Below are positions 3,001 to 38,013 of a stretch of DNA of 64,000 nucleotides, one piece after another; position 1 is the stretch's first letter; each line of letters opens with the position of its first letter. Below the pieces are notes generated by a model that had not been told where the DNA came from, did not search any database, and saw only the letters and a list, made by a program, of their open reading frames with translations. The stretch is from Candidatus Omnitrophota bacterium (GTDB lineage Bacteria; Omnitrophota; Gorgyraeia; JAFGIU01). The stretch covers positions 43,068 to 107,067 of the forward strand of contig JAFGIU010000011.1 in assembly GCA_016929445.1 (NCBI GenBank). The letters run 5' to 3'. A program made the position numbers and the translations under genes.

Positions 3001-5302
3001 AACCTTTGAGTTTTTAAGGGACTGCCTCGGCGCGGGAGAACATACCGTGAGTTTTGAGGTAGACATTGCTCAGGTGGTCTCGGATCCAGATCAAACCAAC
3101 AATAAGAGGGAACGAAGGTTTGTGGTTCGGAAGAAGCTTTCGGATTTGGTTCCGGAAAAAATTGAATTTTATGCACAGGAATCAGGGTTACAGGTTTTGC
3201 CCATGCCCGGGCAACCCCTTTTCTTGCGCGTGCCTGTCCTCAATAAAGGGGCAGGTAATAGTGGGGAATTCAAAATGGAATGGGCCCTTACGGGTCAGTC
3301 CTCCAGCTGGGCGAAGATAACGGCATATCCCAACTTGGCGAGTGGAGAAATCTCCACCGGAGAGCAGGCTCAGGTGAGCTGGATTCCTCAAGCGGGAGTG
3401 TACAAACTCAGCGTTCAAGCAGACAGCCAGAGGACGGTAGAAGAATCGGATGAAACAAACAATGAAAGACTGCTCTTTCTTGATATTTCGGACACGCCGC
3501 TAGTGGACTTGGCTGTAGAGGGGCTGCAGTACCTGGCCCCGCCAGGGGTAAGTCCGGGAGGACCCAAGCCTGGGGAAAGAGAGAGTTTTTTGGTGACGGT
3601 GCGCAATGCGGGAGCGCAGTTGGTGAAGTCAGTATCCCTCTCATGGTTTTTTGATGACCGGCTTGTTGGTGTGGCTGAAGCACAGTTGCTGTTTCCGGGT
3701 GGCGTGACCCAGCTTGTTGTTGAGGTCCGGATGCCCCTTGAAGGCGGTTTGCATCAACTGAAAGCACATCTGGATCCGGAGAACAGAGTGATCGAGGGTT
3801 ACGAGAGCAACAACGTTGCTGTGTTGAACATGGATTTGCCGGTGCCGAACCAGCGGCCTCATGCGGTAGCGTTGTTGACGCCGCTCAGAGGCGATGCGCC
3901 TCTGAGTGTGCGCTTTGATGCCTCGCAGAGTACGGATCCGGAAGGTGAAAAACTGCGTTATTGGTGGAGCTTCGGGGATGAAGCCGATAGCCCTTACAGC
4001 GAGTCGATTTCTGGACTCCACACCTTTATGGAGGAAGGATTTCATGCGGTGACCTTGATGGTGACGGATCCCGGTGGGTTGAGTTCCAAACAAACGCAGA
4101 CAATTAAGGTGAGTCCTCCGGCCGCGCCGTTTTTGTGGAGATTCGATCAGGATGGCGACATGGAAGGGTGGAGCACGTATCGAATGCTGGACGTTCGGGT
4201 TCAAGAGGGATCATTGCAGGGTGCATCCAGACACACGTGGGCTCACACCTACAGCCTGTCGAATCTGGGACTTCCGGCAGCCGAGTACGGCAACTTGTTT
4301 CTGAGATATGAGGTGGGGTCCACGCGCAGCAAGGCGACCCTGAAATTGCGCTGGATCACGGAATCCGACACCGTGTGGAACGATGCGAAGCAGGTATATT
4401 TTGAATACACTCCCGGAACCTGGCAGGACGTGCGGATTGATCTCTCAAATCACGCGGAGTGGAAAGGGACAATCCGGCAGTTCCGAATCTACCCCATTAT
4501 CCAGGTGGAGCCAGGAGAACAGATTAGCTTTTCCATCGACAAGATCCAATTTATGCGCACGGGCGAGGAAGATTTGGTTGAGGAGGGAGTTTTTGTGGCG
4601 GGGCCTTTGCAGGGTACCGGCAAGATTCTGCAGTTTGAAGTGGGAGACACTCATACGTGGGGCGCAGATTTCCTCAACAAAACTGCTCATTATCAGCGGG
4701 TGGCCGTAAGCCTTTTTGTGAAAGACGGAGGGGCGGCCTTGATCGACTACAGAATCCACACCAGCAACTGGGTTTCGGTGGGGCCCTGGAAGACAGTGCG
4801 TGCTGAAATCCAGCACACCTTCCTCGGGAAAGCCGGGTACTCAGATGTGATTCTGATTGCTCAAGTGCAGCACTTCAGTAGCCCCGGAGGCTGCGACATC
4901 ATTGCTGAGAGTCTGCCGATGCAGATCGAGGTCACAGACCCGTATGGAGCGGGTACTGTGACCGCAGAAGGTTTTGAGGGTGGTTGGAATTGGAATTTGA
5001 AGGTGGGCGAAAGCGCCCGGTGGGCAGCGAAGTTCAAAAATACCACCAGTGGCGTCAAGTATGTGGCGGCGAGCCTGTTTTATCCTAACGGCCAGGCGGT
5101 GGTGATGGACTCTAAGATGCACACGAGCTACTGGGTGGAGATCCGGCCGCAGCAGACGGTGACGGCGGAGTTTCGTCACACATTCGCGAGCCCGGGTGTT
5201 TATGAGAATGTGATTCTCAAAGCCCAGATCCAAGATTCCAGTGTGGACTCCGGATGGAGAACAATTGGCGAGACGGCGCCGTTCAGAATCGAGGTCGAAT
5301 GA
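1..5302 (+). CDS. Subtilisin-like serine protease (peptidase S8), 5'-partial at the window edge. Domain order: I9-like propeptide, S8 catalytic domain, beta-propeller-like region, CARDB-like repeats, PKD domain, a roughly 150-aa domain shared with the 6364..7665 protein, and two tandem C-terminal ~115-aa repeats.
   Basis: The frame is open from nt 2 with no stop, so the true start lies upstream of the window; the first in-window start candidate is TTG at 62. The catalytic triad motifs are all present: VVAVVDTGLD (Asp), DFNGHGTHVSGTIAA (His), GTSMAAPHVSGLAALVL (Ser). The I9-like propeptide reads AFASDPLVEYAQPDY. The PKD-like segment reads SVRFDASQSTDPEGEKLRYWWSFGD...HAVTLMVTD. The two C-terminal repeats begin HTSNWVSVGPWKTVRAEIQHTF and HTSYWVEIRPQQTVTAEFRHTF. 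Confidence 0.85.
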   Translation, partial: AGRYAPHRILIKLRGDFPSALEYQASQPVPLCNLAPGSRLAELYQKFGVEKTEPLFRPSMKDVSASMAPQYAEEYLTRQVMLKFPKRAERVPEGVAALSTYHVYCLELREDVKVMEAVKAFASDPLVEYAQPDYQVELEWLPKDEYFYTSNSWGQDYPDLWGLKANQMNMEDAWDITLGKGTVVAVVDTGLDYTHPDIAESLWINEDEVPANGIDDDGNGFVDDIRGWDFAGRTYDAPPDNDVMDFNGHGTHVSGTIAAQANDEGVIGVAPEAKIMPLKGFCDNGSGYISMLAEAMAYAADNGADVMNCSWSGPSYNIHDFVAESAVNYAMTRGCVVVFAAANDYGADAGFISPQNMSYPDAKPIVVSASTPFDTPAVFTNGGYVVDVCAPGGGEPDLPGVHTSVYNILSLKARYFNHYYAEWVVNENLIRLAGTSMAAPHVSGLAALVLAKNPDLNVDQVRQTIRAGARDIFQEGQDFLTGVGCVNAPATLDCPLPPECCIHSPFADGSVTPVGELRITGTASGPGFEVYLLRVASLDSATHDWTYLAESVLPVQNGLLGVWNVGGLPIGSYGLELTVKGAKDKSYTEFKRVIVEPSFEVIPFPAAMYSVFGNSMAVVHGAPVGHYSGYNGFEISLVDLSTKQKQVLQRTTNYINGLAYAGNALFYLEESRGLVKRDMEDGREELLMRCHSLARDLVYSDGRLAFVDVENSQNPGEVFVYYVTLLDLATGAMTRLQPNPTMEYARLAISDKYLVWNAFDFDARRHRLWLYSLETQQGRWLLENEEHQAYAAMDGDKIAFKGYVKNVNEGSSHAHQFLAGESRICLLDIESGNIEDLTDEKSETHPPAIGDGWVVWEVVCSGMNSDLYGFNMKSGKTERLTAYPLPQFWANINGGRLFYSDIRAGLFCDTGYYVHYQILSGMDLSIGTLALLDPRTNESLEAGDIWEGDAARAEATVTWIGENDSGPFQCRWDWNDEGDTPGPAFSRVVNVDNMAPGDEQTFEFLRDCLGAGEHTVSFEVDIAQVVSDPDQTNNKRERRFVVRKKLSDLVPEKIEFYAQESGLQVLPMPGQPLFLRVPVLNKGAGNSGEFKMEWALTGQSSSWAKITAYPNLASGEISTGEQAQVSWIPQAGVYKLSVQADSQRTVEESDETNNERLLFLDISDTPLVDLAVEGLQYLAPPGVSPGGPKPGERESFLVTVRNAGAQLVKSVSLSWFFDDRLVGVAEAQLLFPGGVTQLVVEVRMPLEGGLHQLKAHLDPENRVIEGYESNNVAVLNMDLPVPNQRPHAVALLTPLRGDAPLSVRFDASQSTDPEGEKLRYWWSFGDEADSPYSESISGLHTFMEEGFHAVTLMVTDPGGLSSKQTQTIKVSPPAAPFLWRFDQDGDMEGWSTYRMLDVRVQEGSLQGASRHTWAHTYSLSNLGLPAAEYGNLFLRYEVGSTRSKATLKLRWITESDTVWNDAKQVYFEYTPGTWQDVRIDLSNHAEWKGTIRQFRIYPIIQVEPGEQISFSIDKIQFMRTGEEDLVEEGVFVAGPLQGTGKILQFEVGDTHTWGADFLNKTAHYQRVAVSLFVKDGGAALIDYRIHTSNWVSVGPWKTVRAEIQHTFLGKAGYSDVILIAQVQHFSSPGGCDIIAESLPMQIEVTDPYGAGTVTAEGFEGGWNWNLKVGESARWAAKFKNTTSGVKYVAASLFYPNGQAVVMDSKMHTSYWVEIRPQQTVTAEFRHTFASPGVYENVILKAQIQDSSVDSGWRTIGETAPFRIEVE

Positions 5303-5771: not shown

Positions 5772-6146
5772 CTATTTCAACGCTTCTTCCACGGCGCGGA
5801 GAACACCCGGAACGCCGGCTGATTTCGGGATTGCCGGACTTGTTCCCACAAGATCCCCCAGGCCGGTTTCTTCTCCCTCTTGTGCCATATCGGTGACAAA
5901 GATAATACGAACGTCCCTCAAATCCTCTTCGGCTCTCAGATGTCTGGCAATGCTGCCGCCGTCTTCATAGGGCATCAAATAGTCAATCAAAATGAGATCC
6001 GGTTTGAAAGCAAGCGCAGCAGGCAAGGCTTGTGTCGCTTCATTCACCGCCTGTACTGCATACTTGCCTGTGGCTTCCAGGGCAGCGCCGACAGCCTCTG
6101 TGATCCCGGGGGAGTCATCGACCAACAGAATTTTCTTTTTGTCCAA
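5772..6146 (-). CDS. Single-domain response regulator (CheY-like receiver)
   Basis: KILLVDDSPGITEAV...PDLILIDYLMPYEDGG...IIFVTD. Carries the receiver Asp pocket and the conserved Lys region. No output domain. Confidence 0.8.
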   Translation of the reverse strand: MDKKKILLVDDSPGITEAVGAALEATGKYAVQAVNEATQALPAALAFKPDLILIDYLMPYEDGGSIARHLRAEEDLRDVRIIFVTDMAQEGEETGLGDLVGTSPAIPKSAGVPGVLRAVEEALK

Positions 6147-11352: not shown

Positions 11353-12172
11353 AATAAGAAATCACGCTTTGGCGCTGGTGGGTTTGATTGCTTTGGGAAC
11401 AATGCTTTCGGGATGCGGTATGAAATGGGTTCACCCTGACTTTGAAGCCCGAAGCGCGCAAATCAGCCGTGTGGCCGTGGTGCCAATGGAGATTGATGTC
11501 TACAAATTGACCTTTGGCGGCGAGCATGAACCCATGCCCGAAGAGATCGCGCAGCTCACCGAAAACAGCATCGAGACCCTGGAACAGACCTTTTCCGATA
11601 AAGGCTATGAGATCAAGAAGCTGGACTTGAGCGATGCGGCGCTGCTCGCGGATCCGGAACTCCGGGATGCCTACCACAAACTCAAGGGCCAGTATTCGCA
11701 GGCTTTGAAGGACATCTCCAAGAGAACAAAGAAGAAGTTCGAGTACAAGGTCGGGCCGGAGATCAATATCCTGGCCGATGAGGCGGACACGGACGCCCTG
11801 GTGTTTGTGGCCATTGATGCCTTCAAAAAGACGGGCGGCCAGATCGCCAAAGATATGGCCAAGACTGTGCTGATTGGTGTTCTGACCGGTTCGGTCATGA
11901 TTCACAATACTTCTGCAGCCAACATGCTGGTTGGTATGATCGACGGCAATAACGGCGATATCTTGTGGCTGAACAACAATGCCACGGAGCAAGCCGTTAA
12001 TGTGTCCAACCAAGAGAAGTCCAGTAAGGTCCTGAGTCGCGTGGTCAAGAAGTATCCCAGGAGGCAGACGGGTATCTCCCCGGAAGACATCGGCACAGCC
12101 GTGGCCGGCGCAGTGGACCCTGCGGCGGAATCCGCTGCTGTGGCGAGCGCAGGACCGGTGCTTGCTCCCTGA
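11345..12172 (+). CDS. Hypothetical lipoprotein
   Basis: ATG 11345 overlaps the upstream stop (ATGAATAA). Lipobox in MNKIRNHALALVGLIALGTMLSGCG. No recognisable catalytic motif. Confidence 0.5.
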   Translation: MNKIRNHALALVGLIALGTMLSGCGMKWVHPDFEARSAQISRVAVVPMEIDVYKLTFGGEHEPMPEEIAQLTENSIETLEQTFSDKGYEIKKLDLSDAALLADPELRDAYHKLKGQYSQALKDISKRTKKKFEYKVGPEINILADEADTDALVFVAIDAFKKTGGQIAKDMAKTVLIGVLTGSVMIHNTSAANMLVGMIDGNNGDILWLNNNATEQAVNVSNQEKSSKVLSRVVKKYPRRQTGISPEDIGTAVAGAVDPAAESAAVASAGPVLAP

Positions 12173-12200
12173 TGAACGGCCCGGCGGAGACAAGGTGCGA

Positions 12201-13595
12201 ATGAGCGGGAAAAAAGCCGCGCTGAGGTTTTGCGGGGGAGCGGGCACAGTCACCGGGTCCAAGTACCACATCCAGTATGACGGGGTGCAGGTATTGTTGG
12301 ATGCGGGCATGTTTCAAGGGTTGAAGGAACTGCGTTTGCGCAATTGGAGCGAGCCTCCTTTTGACCCCGCACAAATCCACGCCGTGATTTTGAGTCACGC
12401 GCACATTGACCATTCAGGCTATCTCCCGGTACTCGTGAGAAAGGGTTTCCGCGGGCCCATCTATTGCACGGCCGGAACCCAGGCCCTTCTGGAGGTCCTT
12501 CTTCCGGACGCGGCCTATCTGCAGCAGGAAGAAGCAAATTACGCCAACAAAGCCGGCTTTTCGCAGCACAAGCCCGCCCTGCCTCTTTTTAGTGCCGAGG
12601 ACGCGGACAAGACGCTCCGGCAGCTCAGGGTCTTTCCCTATGGCGAGGAATTTGAAGCGGCCGGCACCTTGAAGGCCAGGTTCCGGCGTGCAGGGCATAT
12701 TTTGGGATCCGCCCTGGTTGAGGCGGCCTTAGGCAAGGACGATCCTGTTTGCCTTGTGTTTTCGGGCGATTTGGGCCGCTGGAACCAGCCGGTGATCCGG
12801 GACCCGGAGTTGATTGCCGGGGCCGATGTCTTGCTTCTCGAGTCAACCTATGGGGACCGGGTGCACCCGCCCGATCCATTGCCTGATCTGGCCAGAGTCA
12901 TCCGTGAGACAGCAGAAAGACGCGGTGTGCTGATTATCCCCGCGTTTGCGGTGGGGAGAACGCAAGAGCTGATCTGGATGATCCGGGACCTCGAGCAGCA
13001 GAACAAAATCCCCGTGCTTCCTATATATGCCGATAGCCCGATGGCAATCAATGTGACGGACATCTATTGCCGCATCCATGAGGATCACGACCTGAAAATG
13101 GAGGAGCTCTCAAAGACGGAGTCCTGTCCGCTGCACACGCAGAAATTCAGTTACGTGAGGGATGTGGAGGAAGTCAAGAAGCTTCATGGAAAAGACGGGC
13201 CCATGGTGATTATTTCCGCCAGCGGCATGGCCACGGGCGGCAGGGTCTTGCATCATTTAAAGAACCGGCTGCCTGATCCCATGAACACGGTGCTTTTTAC
13301 CGGGTACCAGGCCGAGGGCACGCGCGGCCGGTCCTTGCAGGAGGGAGCGGGGACGGTCAAGATTCACGGGCAGCAGGTGCCGGTCCGCGCAAGAATCGAG
13401 ACTGTGGACGGGCTTTCGGCGCACGCGGACCAGAAAGAGATTTTGAGGTGGCTCAGCGGCTTTAAGGCGCCGCCCCGGGAAACCTACCTGGTCCACGGTG
13501 AAAAACGAGCCTCGGAACGTCTGGCGCAGGTCATCAGGCATGAACTGGGGTGGAAGGTACAGGCTGCCCGGGACGGAGAGACGGTGCTTCTGTGA
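12201..13595 (+). CDS. MBL-fold metallo-hydrolase of the beta-CASP RNA-metabolising family (RNase J / CPSF-like)
   Basis: HxHxDH motif in AVILSHAHIDHSGYLP. Downstream beta-CASP motifs: D in FSGDLGRW, and H in the GLSAHAD region. About 465 aa, consistent with MBL + beta-CASP + RMMBL architecture. Confidence 0.75.
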   Translation: MSGKKAALRFCGGAGTVTGSKYHIQYDGVQVLLDAGMFQGLKELRLRNWSEPPFDPAQIHAVILSHAHIDHSGYLPVLVRKGFRGPIYCTAGTQALLEVLLPDAAYLQQEEANYANKAGFSQHKPALPLFSAEDADKTLRQLRVFPYGEEFEAAGTLKARFRRAGHILGSALVEAALGKDDPVCLVFSGDLGRWNQPVIRDPELIAGADVLLLESTYGDRVHPPDPLPDLARVIRETAERRGVLIIPAFAVGRTQELIWMIRDLEQQNKIPVLPIYADSPMAINVTDIYCRIHEDHDLKMEELSKTESCPLHTQKFSYVRDVEEVKKLHGKDGPMVIISASGMATGGRVLHHLKNRLPDPMNTVLFTGYQAEGTRGRSLQEGAGTVKIHGQQVPVRARIETVDGLSAHADQKEILRWLSGFKAPPRETYLVHGEKRASERLAQVIRHELGWKVQAARDGETVLL

Positions 13596-13667
13596 CGCGC
13601 CGCAATATTTTTGTAGACAAGCATATGCCTATATGATTATATCTCTCCAGTGAGGGAGATTTTTTTC

Positions 13668-13994
13668 ATGAAGATCCAAGAAGTCAGAGACGTGATCAAG
13701 GCCCTGGGAGACGACAGCCGCCTGCGGATTCTGGCCTCTCTCTCCTGCGAGGAAATGCCGGTGAATTCCCTGGCGAGTATGTTGCGGCTTTCTCAGCCGA
13801 ACGTGTCCAGGCATCTGGCCCGTATGCGTTTGCTGGGTTTGGTGGAGGACCGCCGGGAGGGCCAGGTTGTTTACTACCGGATCAGCCAGGCCCAGCCGGG
13901 GTGGGTCCAATCACTTTTGACTAAGGTGTGTGAGCTTTTGGAGGCCACTGACGAAGTGGCGCTGGATACGTGCAAATTACGGCCTCTTGTTTAG
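13668..13994 (+). CDS. ArsR/SmtB-family transcriptional regulator
   Basis: RBS GAGGGAG 9 nt before ATG 13668. HTH region ALGDDSRLRILASLSCEEMPVNSLASMLRLSQPNVSRHLARMRLLGLVEDRREGQVVYYRI. Confidence 0.8.
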   Translation: MKIQEVRDVIKALGDDSRLRILASLSCEEMPVNSLASMLRLSQPNVSRHLARMRLLGLVEDRREGQVVYYRISQAQPGWVQSLLTKVCELLEATDEVALDTCKLRPLV

Positions 13995-14046
13995 GAAAGC
14001 AAACGCTTTGCCAGAACGGGAGCCGTTATCCGGAGGCATGACCGGG

Positions 14047-14424
14047 ATGAGCCAGACAAAGTGGGTTACAGCGGGATTTATATTATTGTCTTTTTGTTTG
14101 TTGATGGCCTGTCCCGGATTTGCGGACGGGGAATGGGACTACGCTTACGGCGTTGTGAAGAGTATTAACGGCAACCAAATTACCCTGAGCGAATACGATA
14201 CGATCACCCAGGAGGAAAGCGAGACGGTCTACGAGTTGAGTACAGCTCTTGTGGTGGAAGGGGACATTCCCCTGGATCAGCTGCAACCGGGGGATGAGGT
14301 GGACCTCGAGTTCGAAAATACCGAGGGTGTCTATATTGCGAAGTCCCTCTCCGCCTGGCGTGTTCCGGTCGAAGAGAATTATGAAATCGAAGACGAGACC
14401 GCAATCTCGTCAGGCATGGACTGA
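14047..14424 (+). CDS. Small secreted acidic hypothetical protein
   Basis: Signal peptide MSQTKWVTAGFILLSFCLLMACPGFADG. Acidic C-terminus (EENYEIEDETAISSGMD). An alternative ATG lies at 14038. Confidence 0.45.
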   Translation: MSQTKWVTAGFILLSFCLLMACPGFADGEWDYAYGVVKSINGNQITLSEYDTITQEESETVYELSTALVVEGDIPLDQLQPGDEVDLEFENTEGVYIAKSLSAWRVPVEENYEIEDETAISSGMD

Positions 14425-14427
14425 AGC

Positions 14428-15744
14428 ATGAAAGATGCACATGTCCTCGTAATTCATTCGGGCTCTTCAAAAAAACGCTTTATCCTGGAAACTGCCCAGA
14501 TGCGGGGCATTCGAGTCACGCTTCTGAACCCCCAACAGAATTGGGCTTCTGAAATCGTTCACAAACTCCATGTTTGCCGTCCGCGAACGGTTCGGGGTTT
14601 GGAGGACCGTGTCCGCAGCATTCATGCGAAAGACCCGGTGGATGGTGTGCTCACCTTTTGGGAAGAAGACGTCCCCACTGTGGCTCTATGTGCCCAGAGG
14701 CTGGGGCTGCGCGGCCTAAGTCCGGATTCGGCTTGGGCCAGCCGGAGCAAATTGGTCATGCGCCGGCGTATGGCCCAGATGGGGCTGCCTGTGCCCGCCT
14801 TTCAAGAAGTTGAAACCTGGGAAGACGCGGCCCAATTTGTGCGCGAACACGGCGCTCCGGCCGTTCTCAAGCCCGAGTTCGGCGCGGACAGCGAATGTGT
14901 GGTGAAAGTCGAAGACGAGTCCCAAGCACAGTGGGTTTTTGACTCTGTTCTGGGCCGGGCCAGAATCCAGAGTGCGGTATACCCCTACCAAAGACAGAAA
15001 TTCCTGATCGAATCGTATATTGCCGGTCCTGAAGTCAGCGTAGAGGGAGTTGTGCAAGGCGGGACGCCGGTCTTCTACGCAGTGATCGACAAGTCGCCGA
15101 TGACGGAGCCGTTTTTCATTGAAAGAGGAGAGGTCACTCCTTCACGTTTGCCAAAGACGGCACAGGCTGGAATTCTCGAGATGGTGGGATCGGCCGTGCG
15201 CGCGCTGGGATTGCGGGATTGCGGTCTGCATGCGGAAGTCAAACTGTCGGCCCAGGGTCCGCAAATTGTGGAGATCGGCGCGCGGATGGGCGGAGACTGT
15301 ATTCACGGGTTGGTTAAAGCAGTTTACGGGGTGGATCTTGTGGAGGAAAACTTCAAGGTCTGTCTAGGGGCAATAGCCACTCCCACCCAGCCGGCCCGTT
15401 GTGTCGCGGTTTCCGAGACTCTTGTGCCTGAGCAAAGCGGAAGGGTTGTCTCCGTGCCGGACCTGAACCAGTGGTCCGGACATGACGAACTGATCGAAGT
15501 GGTTCTCACCGCAAAGTCCAAGAGTATGGTCAGAATTCCTCCTTTGGGGTACGACAACCTTGCGTGGGTAAGTGTCAAGGGCCGCAGCTACCGCGAAGCC
15601 AATCAGGCATTGTCGCGCTGGGTTCAAGTTCTTCAAGAGTCGATTCAAATTGAAACGGTTCACCGGCAGCGGGTTTGCGCCCAGCACAAAGCGAAACACC
15701 TGCCGCACTCAACCGTGCCTACGCTGGCTCATGCTGCCTGCTGA
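14428..15744 (+). CDS. ATP-grasp enzyme, L-amino-acid-ligase-like (paralog 1 of 3)
   Basis: 438 aa. N-terminal pre-ATP-grasp domain, central A-domain (PAVLKPEFGADSECVVKVEDE), ESYIAGPEVSVEGVV, and C-terminal RMGGD loop. The layout matches Lal/BacD/PGM1-like ligases. Confidence 0.7.
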   Translation: MKDAHVLVIHSGSSKKRFILETAQMRGIRVTLLNPQQNWASEIVHKLHVCRPRTVRGLEDRVRSIHAKDPVDGVLTFWEEDVPTVALCAQRLGLRGLSPDSAWASRSKLVMRRRMAQMGLPVPAFQEVETWEDAAQFVREHGAPAVLKPEFGADSECVVKVEDESQAQWVFDSVLGRARIQSAVYPYQRQKFLIESYIAGPEVSVEGVVQGGTPVFYAVIDKSPMTEPFFIERGEVTPSRLPKTAQAGILEMVGSAVRALGLRDCGLHAEVKLSAQGPQIVEIGARMGGDCIHGLVKAVYGVDLVEENFKVCLGAIATPTQPARCVAVSETLVPEQSGRVVSVPDLNQWSGHDELIEVVLTAKSKSMVRIPPLGYDNLAWVSVKGRSYREANQALSRWVQVLQESIQIETVHRQRVCAQHKAKHLPHSTVPTLAHAAC

Positions 15745-17095
15745 TCCGGCTTCGGTGCATCTGTTGGTGGTGCACACCCACGCAGATCCGCGCAGCTACC
15801 TGCCCGCGCTTCAAGCCCAAGGGTATCGGTTCACCCTGCTCAAGAAAAATCCTTCCAAGGAGGATTGGGAGTGCTTTGACCGGGTTATCCGGATAGACTT
15901 CCAGGATTCCTGGGAGGAGGTCTTGAGTCAAGCCGGGAAGCTGCACAGCCAGGATCCGCTTTCCGGGACTCTAAGCTTTTCGGAAAGCGGCGTGCTGGTG
16001 GCAAGTCTCCTGGCAGCGGCTCTCGGTCTGGGGGGAAATGACCCTCATGCGGTCTTGTGCACCCGGAACAAGTACTTGATGCGAAAGACTCTTGAGAGCG
16101 CCGGACTGCGAATGCCCCCCTACCGATTGGTTTCTTCCGCCAAAGCGATATTCGAGGCCTTGCGCGGGCACGGCCAACCCATGGTGCTTAAGCCCATCAG
16201 CGGGTCCTCCAGCTATGGAGTGGTGCGGCTCAATCCGGATATCACGCTTCAAGAGGCCACGGAAGTATGGGAGGAAGTCAGTTCCTATATTCGGACTTAT
16301 CCTGCTAAGTATGCGGAATACCCGTATGAATTTTGGCTGCCCCCCCGCCTGGAGGGTTTGCTCGAATGGGAGGCCATGGATCCGGCAGAGCATCTCATGC
16401 TTGAGGGCTTTGTGGAGGGTGCCCAGGTGAGTGTGGACGGATTTGTGGTGGACCAGGACGTAAAGATTTTCGCAGTGGTGGATGTGGAAAGACAAGCCCA
16501 CGAGAAATGGTTTTTGGAATACCAGGAGTGGACGCCCAGCCGTCTGCCCCGGCCGGTTCAAGATCAAATTCTCCAATGCGTCGAGAATACAGTGCGCAGC
16601 TTGGGTTTGACCCGGTCCATGTTTCATTGCGAGCTCAAGGTGGATTCTCAAGGACCTGTGGTTCTTGAAATTGCGGGCAGGCAAGGGGCCGACAATATTT
16701 CGCGGTTCATTTCGCATACGTGCGGCATCAATCCGTACTTAATCGGGGCGGAGCTGGCTCAAGGACTGAAACCCCAAAATCAGATCAGGCCCCGGGGCGC
16801 CATGAAAATGCGGTATTTCCTGCCCGAACAGACAGGGGTGCTGCGCGGCATTAGCGGACAGAAAAAAGTCTCGGAACACCCCAATGTGGACGAGTTGTAT
16901 TTTGAATTCAATACCGGAGAAAAAATCCAAAGTCCTCCGGAGAGCTATGAGTTTTTGGGATATATTTCCGTGAAGGGGGATTCGGCCGAACAGGTGGACC
17001 GGGTTTTGGACGAGTTGTACCCCCAAATTCAGTTTCAGGTCGAAGCCGAAGAGCCTGTCGAGGCCCTCAGCAATTCAAGAACAATCAACCCATGA
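15731..17095 (+). CDS. ATP-grasp enzyme, L-amino-acid-ligase-like (paralog 2 of 3)
   Basis: ATG 15731 overlaps the upstream gene by 14 nt. Same layout as paralog 1: PMVLKPISGSSSYGVVRLNPD, EGFVEGAQVSVDGFVV, IAGRQGAD. Confidence 0.7.
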   Translation: MLPADPASVHLLVVHTHADPRSYLPALQAQGYRFTLLKKNPSKEDWECFDRVIRIDFQDSWEEVLSQAGKLHSQDPLSGTLSFSESGVLVASLLAAALGLGGNDPHAVLCTRNKYLMRKTLESAGLRMPPYRLVSSAKAIFEALRGHGQPMVLKPISGSSSYGVVRLNPDITLQEATEVWEEVSSYIRTYPAKYAEYPYEFWLPPRLEGLLEWEAMDPAEHLMLEGFVEGAQVSVDGFVVDQDVKIFAVVDVERQAHEKWFLEYQEWTPSRLPRPVQDQILQCVENTVRSLGLTRSMFHCELKVDSQGPVVLEIAGRQGADNISRFISHTCGINPYLIGAELAQGLKPQNQIRPRGAMKMRYFLPEQTGVLRGISGQKKVSEHPNVDELYFEFNTGEKIQSPPESYEFLGYISVKGDSAEQVDRVLDELYPQIQFQVEAEEPVEALSNSRTINP

Positions 17096-18408
17096 AGCCG
17101 TTTTCGTCTGTCCGGGGGCCTGTTCTAGTTGTTCATCCCAGCCGGGACTATTTTGAAAGAGTGCTGCAAGTGGCCCCGAATGCCGTTGCTTTGGCCGGTC
17201 CCTCCCGGGCGGAGTCTTTGCCCGCTGCTTCCGTGATCCCCGCGGATCTGGAAGACGCAGACCGCTGCCTGCGTTTGATTCAAGCGTGGGAGGCGCAAAA
17301 CGGCGTCCGGATCGCGGGCATTGTGACCTTTCTGTGCGATCATCTGGCGCTTACCTCGGAATTGGCCCGGGTTCTCAAGCTTCCTTTCCACGACCAATCG
17401 ACCATTCATCGATCCCGCTATAAGCACCAGACCAAAACCTGTTGGCAGGAAGCCGGAATTTCCACGCCCCGGGGGGTGGAGGTGCGTTCCTCAAAGGAAA
17501 TGGAAACCGTATTGAGCTGTCTTCCCGCAGGCCCCTGGCTATTAAAGCCTGTTTCCGCATCGGGAAGCGAATGGGTGCGCCTTGCCTGGGAACCCGCGGA
17601 ACTGGAAGAGCAAATAGCGGCCGTTGCCGCGGGCCTGGCCCATAAAGCCCGGGATGCCGGTGATCCTGCAGGCCTGATTCTGGTGGAGGAGTATATCCGG
17701 GGCGAAGAAGGAAGCATGGACCTCTTCATTCACGGATCCACTGCAAAAATCATGCGGCTTAACCGCAAATGGATGCAGGAGCGCAAGGAGACTGCCGGAA
17801 CCGTTCTGGGTTATTGCGCTTCGAGATGGACTCCCGCTGAAGAAGAAGAACTCAGGCAGCAGGCCGCAAAGGCGCTGCAGGCCTTGGGAGTCCGAAGAGG
17901 TTTGTGCATGCTGGACTTTATTGATTCCGGAGCCAAGGATGGCCGGACTCCGGACCGGTTTTGCTTTCTGGAAGCCGGCTTGCGTCCCGGAGGAGATTGC
18001 CTGCCCGAATGGTCCCGGTATGCCGGGGGATATGACCCGGTCCGGGCCGCAGTCCTGGTGAGCCTGGGGTGTCCGGTAGAGCTGGAGCCTGTTTCCACAA
18101 GGCACAACCGGGAGATCGTGGCTTTTCATCTGATGGCGCCGCATGCCGGCGAATTAACGCAGGCCCGCTGGGAGAGCCTTCTCGATCATCCGGCGGTTCT
18201 TTCGGTGGAACCCTATTTTTCTCAAGGGGATGTGTTGCGGACCGAAAGCGGGGGATATCAGGACTTGCTTTTAGGCGCGGTCGTGGCCCGGCTCGAACCC
18301 GGAATGTCTCTTCGGAAGTTTTACAGGCAGCTCTATGAAGCGGGGGAATTTGCCATTGTCTCTTCGCGGACTTTCCCGCTTGCCCATGCCCAAAGGAGCG
18401 CGGTATGA
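17092..18408 (+). CDS. ATP-grasp enzyme, L-amino-acid-ligase-like (paralog 3 of 3)
   Basis: ATGA overlap with the upstream gene. PWLLKPVSASGSEWVRLAWEP, LVEEYIRGEEGSMDLF, GLRPGGDC. Confidence 0.65.
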   Translation: MKPFSSVRGPVLVVHPSRDYFERVLQVAPNAVALAGPSRAESLPAASVIPADLEDADRCLRLIQAWEAQNGVRIAGIVTFLCDHLALTSELARVLKLPFHDQSTIHRSRYKHQTKTCWQEAGISTPRGVEVRSSKEMETVLSCLPAGPWLLKPVSASGSEWVRLAWEPAELEEQIAAVAAGLAHKARDAGDPAGLILVEEYIRGEEGSMDLFIHGSTAKIMRLNRKWMQERKETAGTVLGYCASRWTPAEEEELRQQAAKALQALGVRRGLCMLDFIDSGAKDGRTPDRFCFLEAGLRPGGDCLPEWSRYAGGYDPVRAAVLVSLGCPVELEPVSTRHNREIVAFHLMAPHAGELTQARWESLLDHPAVLSVEPYFSQGDVLRTESGGYQDLLLGAVVARLEPGMSLRKFYRQLYEAGEFAIVSSRTFPLAHAQRSAV

Positions 18409-19790
18409 GTCGTGTCAAGGACAGTCTTGTCCGGGGGGATTTGGGGGCACAGGTACGAGCGTTGAGTCCGCGGCATCCGGCTTGGCTCGAGATTGCACGG
18501 CGTTACGGAACGCCCTTGTACCTTGTGGAGGAAGAAATACTGCGGACGCGGGCCCGGAAATTTGTGGCCGCGTTTTCTACCGCGCTCGAAGGAGCAAAAG
18601 TCCATTATGCGCTTAAGGCCAATCCTTTTCCCGCGATTGCCCGGTGTTTTGTGGAAGAAGGCCTGGGATTGGATGCCTCGAGCGGCCTGGAGCTGGAGCT
18701 GGCTCTGCGTCTGGGATGCAGCCGTATTTTGCTCAGCGGCCCCGGAAAAACCGATCCGGAACTCGAACTGGCGCTGGCCCATCCCGGGAGAGTGACGGTT
18801 TTAGCCGATAGCGTGAGAGAATTGGAGCGCATCCACAGCCTGAGCAAAGCAAAGGGCCGGAGCTCCCGCGTGGGGCTTCGCATTTCCACCACTTCACAGG
18901 GACAGTGGAATAAGTTCGGTGTGGCCCTGGAAACGCTGCCCGGAATAATGGCCTTGGCCAGGGACCGTTGGCCGGATGTCCGGATCCGGGGCCTTCAGTT
19001 TCATCAGAGCTGGGTCCGGGATGCCCAAGCGCACACGCACACGCTCAAACAGGTGGGGGCGGTTTTGAGAGACCTGCCTGCGCAGGATCGGGAATCGCTG
19101 GAATTCTTGGACATGGGGGGAGGGTATTATCCCGCGAATGAAGAGGGGATTTATCCCTGGCTTGCGGATGCGCAGGATCTGGTGTTGCCTTCGGCGTTTC
19201 CGGATTTTGACCAATGGTGGGGCCAGGGCCAGCCCTTCTATTTTTTCCGCCCGTGCCTGCCCATTGAGGAAATGGCCTCACGCCTCGGACAGGTATTCAA
19301 AGAGGAAATTAGCTCCCAAGTCCCCCTGGAGCCTTGGCTGGAGCCCGGGCGCTGGTTGGTTAACGGTGCGGTACAAATTTTGCTTCAGGTGCGGGACTGC
19401 AAGACTGAGCAAGCCGTAATTGCGGATGCCGGAACCCATTTGCTAGGGTGGGAGCGACTTGAAATGGAATACGCGCCCTTGGTGAACCTGAGCCGTCCTG
19501 GAGAGGATCAGCAGCGCTGCACTGTGTACGGCTCGCTCTGTACGCCTCATGATGTGTGGGGATACTCCTACTACGGGACCGGAATTCAAGAGGGGGATAT
19601 TCTTGCATTGCTGTACCAGGGTGCGTATGTGCAGACCTTGCAGCAAAGATTCATCAAACCCGTGGCCGCAGCGGCGATGCTCTGTTCAGACGGTTCTTAT
19701 GAGTTGCTCAGCAGCCGGGAATCTTTTGAAGACAGATTCGCCGGACTGGGTGCGCCTGCCGCCCTTGACCCTCCGATCTGCCAAGCGTAA
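18405..19790 (+). CDS. PLP-dependent decarboxylase, Orn/Lys/Arg/DAP decarboxylase family (fold III, alanine-racemase-like N-domain)
   Basis: ATGA overlap with the upstream gene. PLP-Lys motif VHYALKANPFPAIARCFVEEGLGLDASSGLELELAL. C-terminal beta-domain with the GxYxxxL-type region GAYVQTLQQRFIKP. Confidence 0.75.
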   Translation: MSRVKDSLVRGDLGAQVRALSPRHPAWLEIARRYGTPLYLVEEEILRTRARKFVAAFSTALEGAKVHYALKANPFPAIARCFVEEGLGLDASSGLELELALRLGCSRILLSGPGKTDPELELALAHPGRVTVLADSVRELERIHSLSKAKGRSSRVGLRISTTSQGQWNKFGVALETLPGIMALARDRWPDVRIRGLQFHQSWVRDAQAHTHTLKQVGAVLRDLPAQDRESLEFLDMGGGYYPANEEGIYPWLADAQDLVLPSAFPDFDQWWGQGQPFYFFRPCLPIEEMASRLGQVFKEEISSQVPLEPWLEPGRWLVNGAVQILLQVRDCKTEQAVIADAGTHLLGWERLEMEYAPLVNLSRPGEDQQRCTVYGSLCTPHDVWGYSYYGTGIQEGDILALLYQGAYVQTLQQRFIKPVAAAAMLCSDGSYELLSSRESFEDRFAGLGAPAALDPPICQA

Positions 19791-19839
19791 AATTCAGCTT
19801 TGACACAGGCCGGTAATGTCTACTAGGAAGGGGAGAAAT

Positions 19840-20439
19840 ATGAAAAAGACGCTTCTGATCACGCTGGGTGTCATCCTGGCGCTGGTTGTATTATTTTTCA
19901 TGATTTTTGGCGGGGTTTACAACAAGCTGGTAGCCGCGGAGGAGGGCGTGAGCAGCGCCTGGGCCCAGGTCGAAAACGTGTACCAGCGCCGCGCGGATTT
20001 GGTGCCGAACTTGGTCAACACGGTCAAAGGTTTTGCCGCCCAGGAGAAGGATGTGTTGCAGGGGGTGGTGGAGGCCCGCTCCAAGGTCTCCCAAATGAAC
20101 ATCAATGCTTCGGATATCCTCAATGACCCGGCAGCTCTGCAACAATTCCAGGCAGTGCAGGGACAGTTGTCCTCGGCCCTGAGCAGGCTCCTGGTGACAG
20201 TGGTGCGCTATCCGGAGCTCAAGTCCAGCCAGAATTTTCTGACCCTGCAAACCCAGCTGGAGGGGACTGAAAACCGCATTACTGTGGAGCGCCGCCGTTT
20301 TAATGACGCGGCCAAGGGTTTCAATACCTTCCGGAGACAATTCCCGAATAATCTGATTGCGGGAATGATGGGATTCAAGTCCAAGGAATATTTCCAGGCA
20401 GATCAAGGCGCTGACAAAGCGCCGGTTGTCCAGTTTTGA
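19840..20439 (+). CDS. lemA: LemA family protein
   Basis: RBS GGAAGGGGAG before ATG 19840. N-terminal TM then the LemA signature NKLVAAEEGVSSAWAQVENVYQRRADLVPNLVNTVKGFAAQEKDVL...QLEGTENRI. Confidence 0.85.
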   Translation: MKKTLLITLGVILALVVLFFMIFGGVYNKLVAAEEGVSSAWAQVENVYQRRADLVPNLVNTVKGFAAQEKDVLQGVVEARSKVSQMNINASDILNDPAALQQFQAVQGQLSSALSRLLVTVVRYPELKSSQNFLTLQTQLEGTENRITVERRRFNDAAKGFNTFRRQFPNNLIAGMMGFKSKEYFQADQGADKAPVVQF

Positions 20440-21278
20440 TGAAATTCCGTACGTTTGTTTCTGCGGGGCTTCTGCTTTGTCTGATCTTTGGGGGCGGGGC
20501 CTTCTCCCATGCCTTGGAGATTCCCGTCCGTCCGGAAGACTATGTCACTGACCGGGCCGCAATGCTTTCCCCCTCTGCCCGGGCTGAACTTAACCGCGCG
20601 TTGAAGCAGTTTGAGGCCCAGACCTCCAACCAAGTGGCCGTGGTCACCTTTGCGTCGGCGGAGGAGGAGTCCCTCGAGGATTTTTCCATTCGTCTGGCTG
20701 AAAAATGGAAACTGGGTCAAAAAGGCAAAGACAACGGCGTCATACTCCTCATTTTTAAACAAGAGCGCTTGATCCGGATCGAAGTGGGCTATGGCTTGGA
20801 AGGCTCCTTACCCGATGCTTTGGCAGGGCTCATTATCAGCCGGGAAATGGCCCCGTTGTTCCGTGAAGGGGACTATGAGACGGGTATTGCAAGGGGTGTG
20901 CAAGCCATCCTTCAAGCGGTGCAAGGCGAGTACAAGGTTCAAGCCTCTGGCCTGGACGGGCAAGGCGCGCATCCGGATATGGGGGCGCAATACCGGGCAC
21001 TTTTCTTGCTAATCATGTTAGTGGTTCTGGTTCTGTTCCTGACGGACCTGTTTCGATACCGCACCTACCTTAATAACCATCGTGTCTACGCGAGTCGCTA
21101 CAGTTTTTGGGAGTGGTTTTTTCGTTTCGCTTTGCTGTTGGCTGTTCTGTCCATCTTGTTCAGGATTGCTTTTTATACGGCCCTGATGTCCCGGGGCGGC
21201 TATAGCGGAGGCCGGGGAGGGGGTTTTTCCGGCGGCGGAGGGTCTTTTGGCGGGGGCGGCGCCAGCGGAGGCTGGTAA
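20436..21278 (+). CDS. TPM-domain protein (YgcG-like) with C-terminal TM helix and Gly-rich tail
   Basis: ATGA overlap with lemA. Signal peptide. TPM core VTDRAAMLSPSARAELNRALKQFEAQTSNQVAVVTFAS...GVILLIFKQERLIRIEVGYGLEG. C-terminal tail GGYSGGRGGGFSGGGGSFGGGGASGGW. Confidence 0.75.
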   Translation: MMKFRTFVSAGLLLCLIFGGGAFSHALEIPVRPEDYVTDRAAMLSPSARAELNRALKQFEAQTSNQVAVVTFASAEEESLEDFSIRLAEKWKLGQKGKDNGVILLIFKQERLIRIEVGYGLEGSLPDALAGLIISREMAPLFREGDYETGIARGVQAILQAVQGEYKVQASGLDGQGAHPDMGAQYRALFLLIMLVVLVLFLTDLFRYRTYLNNHRVYASRYSFWEWFFRFALLLAVLSILFRIAFYTALMSRGGYSGGRGGGFSGGGGSFGGGGASGGW

Positions 21279-21291
21279 GAAAGGTTTGGCT

Positions 21292-21747
21292 ATGAAGATT
21301 GAACGCGACATGAATCCTGCGCTTTTTTTCTCCCAAACGGAAAAGCAGGCCATCCGCCGGGCAGTGCGGGGGGCTGAAATGAAAACCTCGGGTGAGATCC
21401 GGGTGCATTTGGAACGAAAGGCGAGAGAGCCTTTTTTGGAGAATGCCGAAGAGGTTTTTGAGAAAACCGGAATGACCCGGACGGCCGAGCGCAACGGGGT
21501 GCTTATCTTTATTGGTCTGGCCAGCCGGCGCTATGCTATTCTCGGTGACAAAGGCATCCATGAGAAGGTTCCGGAAGGTTTTTGGGATAAAATCGCCCAA
21601 CAGATGGGGGAGGAGTTCCGTCAAGACCGTTTTGCCGACGGCGTGGTGGCCGCTGTGGAGCAAATCGGAGAACGACTACAGGAATACTTTCCGTACCAGC
21701 GCGATGATGTCAACGAATTGCCGGACGAGATTTCGTATTCTTTGTGA
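21292..21747 (+). CDS. TPM-domain protein (short cytoplasmic-type paralog)
   Basis: ALFFSQTEKQAIRRAVRGAEMKTSGEIRVHLER...GVLIFIGLASRRYAILGDKGIHEKV. An alternative start lies at 21247. Confidence 0.65.
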   Translation: MKIERDMNPALFFSQTEKQAIRRAVRGAEMKTSGEIRVHLERKAREPFLENAEEVFEKTGMTRTAERNGVLIFIGLASRRYAILGDKGIHEKVPEGFWDKIAQQMGEEFRQDRFADGVVAAVEQIGERLQEYFPYQRDDVNELPDEISYSL

Positions 21748-37788: not shown

Positions 37789-38013
37789 GTCTCGAGCTGG
37801 ATACGAGGAGTGGGGTACTTTTGTAAAGTTCTGTCAGGCAATAAGTTGCGTATGATTTCTATCAGAGTCAACATTTTTGTTTTGGGAGAAAATATAAGAC
37901 TTTATCCAAAGGGATATTTTTCAATCCAACCGGAATACTTTGTGGGGATTTTGGAGCGGTTGTATTGCCGGTGACACCTTAATTGACGACTGTTGTTCCG
38001 GGAGGACATTCCG

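Follow-up and report, generated by a model that had tools for sequence, protein, structure and literature searches.

Within the decarboxylases of the alanine-racemase fold, FigC, SbnH, AcsE, MccE and BtrK form one clade with diaminopimelate decarboxylase (DAPDC) and D-ornithine/lysine decarboxylase (D-ODC), and the substrate of each of the first five is an amino acid that a partner enzyme has conjugated beforehand, in the case of BtrK glutamate thioesterified to the carrier protein BtrI (PMC7857480). In the formation of phevamine A, encoded by the hsv operon of Pseudomonas syringae, two ATP-grasp enzymes act in succession to attach amino acids to a polyamine-derived amine (PMC6187163). From a 64,000-nucleotide stretch of a Candidatus Omnitrophota genome (assembly GCA_016929445.1, contig JAFGIU010000011.1, positions 43,068 to 107,067; in the following, the window is this whole stretch), an operon of four genes can be deduced, here designated A1, A2, A3 and Dc, for three L-amino-acid-ligase (LAL)-type ATP-grasp enzymes and a fold III decarboxylase dependent on pyridoxal 5'-phosphate (PLP). 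On balance, the operon appears to encode a "ligate, then decarboxylate" synthesis of a small amide-linked compound, independent of ribosomes and of nonribosomal peptide synthetases (NRPS).

As checked in the sequence, A1 and A2 overlap by 14 nt (15731/15744) and the two following junctions are ATGA at 17092 and at 18405. A1-A2-A3-Dc is a single translationally coupled operon, as had been claimed in an earlier note made from the sequence alone. For A2, the mechanically called open reading frame (ORF) extends from 15572 to 17095 with a GTG start, and an in-frame ATG is found at 15731. Relatives of Dc were collected in a scan of one genome per species, which returned 417 of 185,579 species genomes. 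The loci of the best 80 of these 417 (given, like further related loci, by L numbers below) were analyzed by calling ORFs and searching them with the four window proteins; all 80 are from metagenome-assembled genomes (MAGs) of uncultured lineages in many phyla. Homologues of Dc with 40-50% identity are numerous in metagenomes, the closest one being 50% identical (L087). An A3-type ligase lies directly upstream of Dc in about 75 of the 80 loci. The A3-Dc pair is the conserved core of the whole family, and A1 plus A2 is one of two alternative add-ons.

The complete order A1-A2-A3-Dc, the window type, recurs in some 25 loci of at least five further phyla, none of them cultured, so that the operon is conserved as a unit outside the window, a point on which the earlier note had made its reading depend. 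Hosts are MAGs of Gemmatimonadota, Latescibacterota, Verrucomicrobiota, Handelsmanbacteria and Gammaproteobacteria, besides metagenome contigs. Still, this type is rare, with 11 true A1 orthologues in 241 million metagenome records. L002 and L087 encode A2 and A3 as a single protein of 856 aa, L023 as one of 932 aa, and a GNAT-A3 fusion is found in one locus, L025; these fusions point to physical and functional coupling. One window-type locus (L012, CAMAVQ010000030.1) bears the label of a Gemmatimonas phototrophica MAG; a cultured strain of this species exists and, if it has the operon, could serve as a host for experiments. In the commoner, sister type, the place of A1 and A2 is taken by a small pyruvoyl protein of the AdoMet_dc family (SpeD-like, about 130 aa, motif ETSLISAHF) and an Acetyltransf_6 (PF13480) GNAT of about 320 aa, in the order TetR, SpeD-like, GNAT, A3, Dc and often with a divergent sigma-54 activator gene. 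This type is represented by L006, L024, L031, L034, L056 (1648-6378), L064 and about 50 more loci of Desulfobacterota, Planctomycetota, Ignavibacteriales, Zixibacteria and others, and the SpeD-like gene was found in 46 of them. Near L064, a match to the catalytic domain of a group II intron (54 bits) was noted at 14339-14414 on the minus strand. Neighbour joining of Dc sequences groups the window type in one clade, with the other type as its sister and the window as the deepest branch within the former.

In the Pfam search, A1 matches ATP-grasp_4 (83 bits), ATPgrasp_N (44 bits) and LAL_C2 (31.5 bits), A2 matches ATP-grasp_4 (58 bits) and LAL_C2 (56 bits), and A3 shows a weaker match to ATP-grasp_4 (31 bits) together with ATP-grasp_3. 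The LAL_C2 values, i.e., those for LAL C-terminal domain 2 (PF18603), lie above the cut-off of 29.4; A3 has no Pfam match to this domain, and its C-terminal part superposes on LAL BL00235 (3vot). The top PDB sequence matches of A1 are BL00235 (98 bits) and BacD (75 bits), and BL00235 is likewise the top PDB match of the A3 family profile, with which members score 429-601 bits and the next protein 126 bits. An AlphaFold2 (AF2) model of A3 (mean predicted local distance difference test score, pLDDT, 86.6) finds 3vot, RizA (4wd3) and BacD (3vmm) first, ahead of biotin carboxylases and PurK, and aligns with 3vot over about 440 columns at a template modelling (TM) score of 0.71-0.79. None of the housekeeping NCBIfam models (PurK, Ddl, RimK, biotin carboxylase, cyanophycin synthetase) comes near its cut-off for A1, A2 or A3. 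With PDB, fold and NCBIfam results in agreement, the three enzymes can be assigned to the LAL branch of the ATP-grasp superfamily, and the earlier placement outside the housekeeping families holds. In the alignments, the ATP-grasp motifs R-x-K, VLKP, E-x-(F/Y)-(I/V)-x-G-x-E and E-(I/M)-(G/A)-x-R-x-G-(G/A)-D are intact in all three ligases and their orthologues, including the ATP-binding lysine, the Mg-binding acidic residues and the catalytic arginine; in A3, invariant residues include K111, K152, E206, D275, E294 and R298-PGGD. Orthologues of A1 are 44-50% identical to the window protein (mean column identity 66%), and A2 has an insertion of about 20 residues in its central domain. By analogy with LALs, ATP-dependent condensation of unprotected amino acids would be the expected activity. 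The identity between A1 and A2 is 28%, and that of A3 to either of them 21-26%, so that the ligases are anciently diverged and not recent tandem paralogues. Nor are they equivalent; the earlier picture of three tandem paralogues plus a decarboxylase has to be replaced by that of an A3-Dc core with an A1/A2 add-on.

Dc matches Orn_Arg_deC_N (PF02784, 92 bits) and Orn_DAP_Arg_deC (PF00278, 30 bits), and K71 and N73 of the K-A-N PLP-lysine motif are invariant in 27 homologues, as are H200, GGG238-240, E313, C379, D383 and Y408. The earlier assignment to PLP enzymes of the Orn/DAP/Arg-decarboxylase family can be retained, and these residues predict a catalytically intact decarboxylase. The best NCBIfam match is lysA (TIGR01048) with 161 bits at an equivalog cut-off of 297.9, and all other equivalog models remain far below their cut-offs; the FslC model gives 75 bits (cut-off 500). 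An AF2 model of Dc (pLDDT 87) matches family members at TM 0.7-0.75, the fold matches being D-ODC, DAPDC, FigC/FslC and BtrK at 20-25% identity, and the Dc family profile scores DAPDC with 129, FigC with 125 and BtrK with 119 bits. BtrK is the best PDB match of the single Dc sequence (90 bits); as the specific nearest relative, however, it fails with the family profile and in the fold search. DAPDC binds the distal end of its substrate by the motif C-E-S-G/S-D and the arginine of N-D-x-x-R-P. Where DAPDC has CES(G/S)D and BtrK LCTPED, Dc shows LCTPHD, of which C-T-P-H-D is invariant, and the alignments place G-W(-E) of Dc at the R-P of NDxxRP. Membership in LysA was rejected, as both score and substrate motifs fail, and sequence and model together suggest that Dc represents a separate subfamily in the DAPDC/FigC/BtrK/D-ODC branch.

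Since the nearest relatives of Dc are the enzymes decarboxylating conjugates and its fixed partner is a ligase, A3, a sequence of ligation and subsequent decarboxylation can be proposed. In a first step, A3 would join an amino acid via its side-chain group to a partner at the expense of ATP, leaving the alpha-amino and alpha-carboxyl groups free. From this conjugate, Dc would then strip the alpha-carboxyl group, resulting in a terminal primary amine. A1 and A2 would form two more amide bonds, either building the partner before A3 acts or extending the product afterward, and in the sister type the remainder of the molecule would be provided or lengthened by the SpeD-like and GNAT proteins. As the product, a short and cationic pseudo-peptide or aminoacyl-amine would be expected, similar to a polyamine conjugate; from the number of ligases, we infer that it might be a tri- or tetrapeptide with a decarboxylated end.

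Directly 5' of A1, an ORF for 22-31 aa with its own Shine-Dalgarno sequence and ATG is present in 22 of the 24 window-type loci with readable upstream sequence, its stop codon lying 5-7 nt ahead of the A1 ATG. The encoded C-terminus follows the pattern (L)-x-(F/L)-(L/F)-x-(Y/F)-G-G-(L/R/H), as in MSTLRFFPPHRHGYTLHFLSYGGL and MYSHGANQCKSTLQLFYLAYGGR, and TAG serves as stop codon in 17 of all 22 loci (in 12 of the 14 loci studied first). Entropy is 1.25 at third codon positions versus 0.82 and 0.84 at the others, and the synonymous share of pairwise codon differences amounts to 34% in frame versus 7% and 5% in the shifted frames, a signature indicative of coding constraint. A mere translation of the Shine-Dalgarno sequence GGAGG into YGG was considered and rejected: the invariant GGAGG stands at a distance of 12-14 nt to the A1 ATG, and synonymous variation is seen in the codons around it. 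The ORF is missing from the window and from L017, whose close relative L020 ends before the upstream region, and none was found in sister-type loci. A six-frame scan of the window for [YFW]GG-x(0-2)-stop gave stop-to-stop segments of at most 17 codons and no credible ORF, none of them adjoining A1; a chance-level example is A-F-G-G-H-stop at 13934-13951, a 6-codon segment inside an ArsR gene. The earlier statement that no precursor peptide is encoded is consequently correct for the window but cannot be extended to the family. Within the window-type clade of the Dc tree, the two lineages that branch off most deeply are the window and L017/L020. Judged by this order, the peptide seems to have been added later, and a function as leader or arrest peptide is more plausible than that of an obligatory substrate. 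SpeFL and TnaC are nascent-peptide sensors, and the upstream ORF could, by analogy, couple translation of A1 to a pathway substrate or product. Either role, that of a new arrest or of a new scaffold peptide, is directly testable for it.

In the sister type, small proteins of a different kind adjoin the A3-Dc pair. LysW-like zinc-ribbon proteins, whose acidic tails end close to a W or Y, are encoded in about 10 loci, right after Dc or upstream of the SpeD-like gene, and one of them matches Zn_ribbon_LysW (PF21344) with 33.5 bits. As a general partner of A3-Dc, however, acidic-tailed or LysW-like proteins were dismissed because no more than about 10-15 of about 55 loci encode them, and no LysW-like zinc-ribbon ORF was found in the window. 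Moreover, a Peptidase_C39-like gene follows directly 3' of Dc in seven Desulfobacterales-type loci, all without a SpeD-like gene (L027, L032, L033, L036, L063, L067 and L085, e.g., 11390-12148 in the latter).

These genes bear on the best-surviving alternative, a pathway templated by a peptide or carrier, in which the ligases would act on the C-terminus or a side chain of a small ribosomal peptide or a LysW-like carrier by extension or decoration, Dc would decarboxylate the tethered residue and a hydrolase would release the product. It would resemble pearlin-type scaffold-peptide or amino-group-carrier-protein pathways, albeit with ATP-grasp ligases, and would require the scaffold for the window operon to be encoded elsewhere. 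We regard such a pathway as rather unlikely. The YGG ORF with its coding signature, the LysW-like proteins and the C39-like peptidases speak for it, scaffold-peptide logic is established for other pathways, and BtrK and MccE demonstrate that the decarboxylase clade can use carrier- or peptide-bound substrates (PMC7857480). On the other hand, the four enzymes of the window are intact without such an ORF or a LysW-like one in its 64 kb, lineages without the upstream ORF branch deepest, and most sister-type loci have no small carrier gene nearby. In addition, the coupling over 5-7 nt to A1 should result in roughly equimolar translation, fitting a leader peptide better than a consumed substrate, and Pfam recognizes no leader-binding (RRE) domain in the enzymes. 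Similarly improbable is the specific version in which the upstream ORF is a ribosomal scaffold whose C-terminus is extended by the three ligases, finished by Dc and released by an amidohydrolase or peptidase, with the window operon as the basal, scaffold-free form; if true, it would represent a new class of peptide-templated natural-product pathway employing ATP-grasp enzymes where pearlin pathways use PEARLs. Nevertheless, the conserved upstream ORF and the LysW-like and C39-like genes in a minority of sister-type loci make a peptide- or carrier-tethered mechanism conceivable and weigh against the proposed ligation followed by decarboxylation, as do the fact that its order of steps and chemistry are deduced from family logic and the patchy occurrence of polyamine-type neighbours, each found in some relatives only and none in the window flanks.

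Among these neighbours, genes of the histone-deacetylase/acetylpolyamine-amidohydrolase family are located 3' of Dc in 8 loci and an SSF symporter gene in 4; the SpeD-like gene of 46 sister-type loci likewise belongs to this group. Directly 5' of the operon in L087 (1578-5551), a Pot-type, polyamine-like ABC transporter is encoded, consisting of an ATPase with TOBE_2, two permeases and an SBP_bac_8/Lipoprotein_8 binding protein. Phevamine A is a precedent for the building of an aminoacyl-polyamine by ATP-grasp enzymes; the link of the family to polyamines is a lead rather than a result. Control of the operon seems to differ between lineages. Aptamers of the cyclic di-GMP (c-di-GMP)-I riboswitch (45-51 bits, gathering score 35) are found in five window-type loci, either ahead of the ligase operon (L002, L016) or ahead of a FliG-like gene preceding it (L002, L004, L007, L011), which suggests second-messenger control in Gemmatimonadota and Latescibacterota. 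No c-di-GMP riboswitch was found in the window, where an ArsR-family gene is present instead, and the Rfam scan of the window gave nothing at gathering score. Sister-type loci usually possess a TetR gene and/or a sigma-54 activator gene.

As the earlier note had described, the operon of the window is flanked upstream by the ArsR gene and a gene for a small secreted acidic protein and downstream by LemA and TPM-domain genes (see table). Pfam and sequence agree on these neighbours. For the ArsR gene, the ORF list gives GTG 13650, and an ATG at 13668 stands after GGGAGA and is the more likely start. The hairpin directly 5' of it has 7 bp including GC pairs, is followed by TTTTTTT and overlaps the Shine-Dalgarno sequence of ArsR. 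It may terminate transcription of the beta-CASP gene upstream, mask this ribosome-binding site, or do both, and probably represents the 5' limit of the transcription unit. The small protein is, from its signal peptide and lipobox-like motif, probably a lipoprotein. Its stop codon is only 3 nt ahead of the A1 ATG, which makes co-transcription of both probable, and the ArsR gene is probably part of the same transcript. Pfam matches of the small protein are all below threshold (DUF5666, 19 bits; CusF_Ec, 18.6 bits at a cut-off of 27), and no counterpart was found in the related loci examined. The ArsR gene, likewise, is upstream of A1 in the window only and in no other window-type locus.

From these two genes, a metal- or sulfide-responsive function might be deduced, in which the chemistry proposed for A3 and Dc would yield a chelator or thiol-type peptide, derepressed via ArsR/SmtB under metal or persulfide stress and assisted by a CusF-like lipoprotein in the periplasm. 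Position and strand of both genes, the weak CusF_Ec/DUF5666 similarity and the employment of the Dc relatives FigC and SbnH in siderophore pathways (PMC7857480) are in favour of this idea. However, the confinement of both genes to the window, a CusF_Ec score below cut-off and the unrelated signals controlling the relatives (TetR, sigma-54 activators, c-di-GMP) make it quite improbable.

ATP-grasp enzymes that modify protein C-termini are RimK, acting on ribosomal protein S6, and the tubulin-tyrosine ligases, acting on tubulin. With these precedents, the ligases might also be thought to add residues to a protein C-terminus or side chain, for example to the acidic-tailed small protein encoded immediately ahead of A1. 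Considering that this protein bears an export signal and is not kept with the operon in any relative, that the RimK and LysX models score 19-29 bits versus cut-offs of 143-276, and that a PLP decarboxylase needs a free alpha-amino acid, a better fit to small conjugates, such tagging is very improbable. Weakest of all and hardly credible is a role in primary metabolism, with Dc as a variant LysA or ornithine/lysine decarboxylase next by chance to housekeeping RimK, Ddl, PurK or cyanophycin-synthetase fragments: although lysA is the best NCBIfam match of Dc, its homologues are annotated at source as diaminopimelate decarboxylase or alanine racemase and the window flanks are housekeeping, the lysA score is 161 versus 298 bits with other equivalog models far below their cut-offs, no NCBIfam model reaches its cut-off for the ligases, the DAPDC substrate-binding motifs are replaced, the family is restricted to 417 of 185,579 species genomes with Dc beside A3 in about 75 of 80 loci, and control is by TetR, sigma-54 activators, ArsR or c-di-GMP riboswitches, thereby also disposing of the housekeeping families and LysA orthology that the earlier note had named as possible counter-evidence.

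Downstream, a promoter-like TTGACC-17-TAAAAT at 19765-19793 precedes LemA, and no LemA or TPM gene adjoins Dc in any related locus examined; LemA and the two TPM genes are probably a unit separate from the operon. The Rnf complex is encoded further downstream, and the other window flanks encode an aldolase, M48 peptidases and a beta-CASP RNase. The latter (12162-13595), with a beta-CASP/RMMBL metallo-beta-lactamase fold, has its best NCBIfam match in the type VII CRISPR Cas14 model (363 bits, cut-off 800) but its most likely identity is that of an ordinary aCPSF1/RNase J-like nuclease. At third codon positions, the four operon genes have a GC content of 0.61-0.64 versus 0.69-0.73 in most flanking genes (TPM-domain gene 1, 0.63), a mild difference that could be due to lower expression or foreign origin. 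The window also contains a giant ORF of 4530 aa (37993-51585) and a 1746-aa ORF for a subtilase with CARDB and PKD domains (62-5302).

Coordinates of features in the window and in related loci (positions refer to the sequence named in the second column).
Feature	Sequence	Position	Strand	Remarks
A1, L-amino-acid-ligase-type ATP-grasp enzyme	window	14428-15744	+	438 aa, ATG start
A2, L-amino-acid-ligase-type ATP-grasp enzyme	window	15731-17095	+	454 aa from ATG 15731
A3, divergent LAL-type ATP-grasp ligase	window	17092-18408	+	438 aa
Dc, alanine-racemase-fold (fold III) PLP-dependent decarboxylase	window	18405-19790	+	461 aa
Hairpin, then T run	window	13641-13668	+	terminator-like site ATCTCTCCAGTGAGGGAGAT + TTTTTTTC, directly 5' of ArsR start codon
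ArsR/SmtB-family winged-helix regulator	window	13668-13994	+	Pfam HTH_5 46 bits, HTH_20 32 bits
Small exported protein	window	14038-14424	+	128 aa from ATG 14038, signal peptide, lipobox-like LMAC, acidic C-terminus
LemA	window	19816-20439	+	Pfam LemA 188 bits; begins 26 nt 3' of Dc
TPM-domain gene 1	window	20436-21278	+	Pfam TPM_phosphatase 138 bits
TPM-domain gene 2	window	21247-21747	+	Pfam TPM_phosphatase 81 bits
c-di-GMP-I aptamers	L002	5705-5800, 3476-3571
c-di-GMP-I aptamer	L016	5509-5600
c-di-GMP-I aptamer	L004	4840-4933
c-di-GMP-I aptamer	L007	4825-4917
c-di-GMP-I aptamer	L011	4843-4936
Upstream ORF	L002	~6069-6137
Upstream ORF	L004	~6077-6145
Upstream ORF	L014	~2174-2245
Upstream ORF	L016	~5890-5955
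Upstream ORF, further loci	L087, L088, L089-L094, L096, L097			directly 5' of A1 in each
Zinc-ribbon genes	L079	3591-3791, 3884-4090
Zinc-ribbon gene	L049	6624-6911
Zinc-ribbon gene	L058	11313-11540
Zinc-ribbon gene	L065	11284-11550
Zinc-ribbon gene	L066	6424-6663
Zinc-ribbon gene	L082	11340-11552
Zinc-ribbon gene	L073	11284-11454
Zinc-ribbon gene	L078	11211-11360

In full-text searches of the literature, no description of this gene set was found, in agreement with the earlier note, which had not recognized the arrangement as a described cluster; an earlier mention is possible in Li et al. 2019 (Biochem J) or Iyer et al. 2009 (Mol Biosyst). The protein families are known, and new are the fixed A3-Dc module, the two alternative front ends and the conserved upstream ORF. 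Present in more than 400 species genomes and without a characterized member, the A3-Dc family would be easy to test by heterologous expression, and its modular logic combines a fixed ligase-decarboxylase core with two interchangeable front ends. Operons of ATP-grasp ligases are a poorly mined source of small molecules, as they escape searches centred on NRPS and polyketide synthases. Should the product prove to be a polyamine-like peptide-amine whose formation is controlled by c-di-GMP, TetR or ArsR, a new type of cationic metabolite would be added for sediment and groundwater bacteria, and the decarboxylase clade working by ligation first and decarboxylation second would, if our proposal is true, be extended to ATP-grasp partners.

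Compared with the LALs BL00235, BacD/YwfE, RizA and TabS, the three window ligases share the three-domain ATP-grasp fold and the ATP/Mg and catalytic arginine motifs, A1 and A2 also the LAL C-terminal domain, and by analogy an acyl-phosphate intermediate attacked by an amine would be expected. In contrast, the fold alignments give only 13-18% identity to solved LALs, the BacD and DdaF equivalog models reach 33-75 bits versus cut-offs of 840-850, and the operon chains three unlike ligases and ties them to a decarboxylase. Graspetide (microviridin-type) maturases were rejected as relatives, with the RimK model at 27-29 bits versus a cut-off of 143 and LAL-type proteins of 438-454 aa versus RimK-like ones of about 320 aa; in line with this, no graspetide-type precursor (Thr/Ser/Lys-Asp/Glu core) was found for the window operon.

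The pair BtrJ/BtrK from butirosin biosynthesis, cited in the earlier note as a comparable case, also comprises an ATP-grasp ligase and an alanine-racemase-fold PLP decarboxylase acting after ligation, and the motif LCTP(E/H)D is shared by Dc and BtrK. This ligase-decarboxylase logic remains valid as a comparison, whereas a special closeness to BtrK and a carrier protein are both lacking. Pfam found no acyl carrier protein (ACP) or PP-binding domain among the window ORFs at 10-25 kb, no ACP or phosphopantetheine-type carrier was seen near the operon or in the related loci examined, and neither an NRPS nor a precursor-peptide gene was found in the window, confirming the earlier statement on NRPS and ACP. 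With no carrier protein encoded alongside the pair, membership in the BtrJ/BtrK pathway was rejected.

The same succession of side-chain ligation and decarboxylation of the conjugate is known from FigA/FigC (FslA/FslC) of rhizoferrin synthesis, SbnH and AcsE (PMC7857480), and FigC ranks among the top matches of Dc by both sequence and fold. There, however, the partner ligases are NRPS-independent siderophore (NIS) synthetases of the IucA/IucC type using citrate, whereas the operon encodes LAL-type ATP-grasp enzymes. Since no IucA/IucC synthetase is encoded beside Dc and no such domain was detected in the window ORFs scanned, NIS siderophore pathways were rejected as well. MccD/MccE follow the same ligate-then-decarboxylate logic as proposed for A3/Dc. 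The polyamine/ATP-grasp operon of the PSP paper (PMC11237479) proved to be a different system, with a glutathionylspermidine-synthetase-like ligase. The hsv system, a small ATP-grasp operon as well, plausibly illustrates what A1 and A2 may do, though it includes an amidinotransferase and lacks a decarboxylase. A further related system is that of the sister operons. They differ in having SpeD-like and GNAT genes for A1 and A2, a TetR and/or sigma-54 activator gene, no YGG ORF and, in some cases, LysW-like or C39-like genes, but share orthologous A3 and Dc genes, overlapping and in the same order, with the Dc proteins 40-45% identical.

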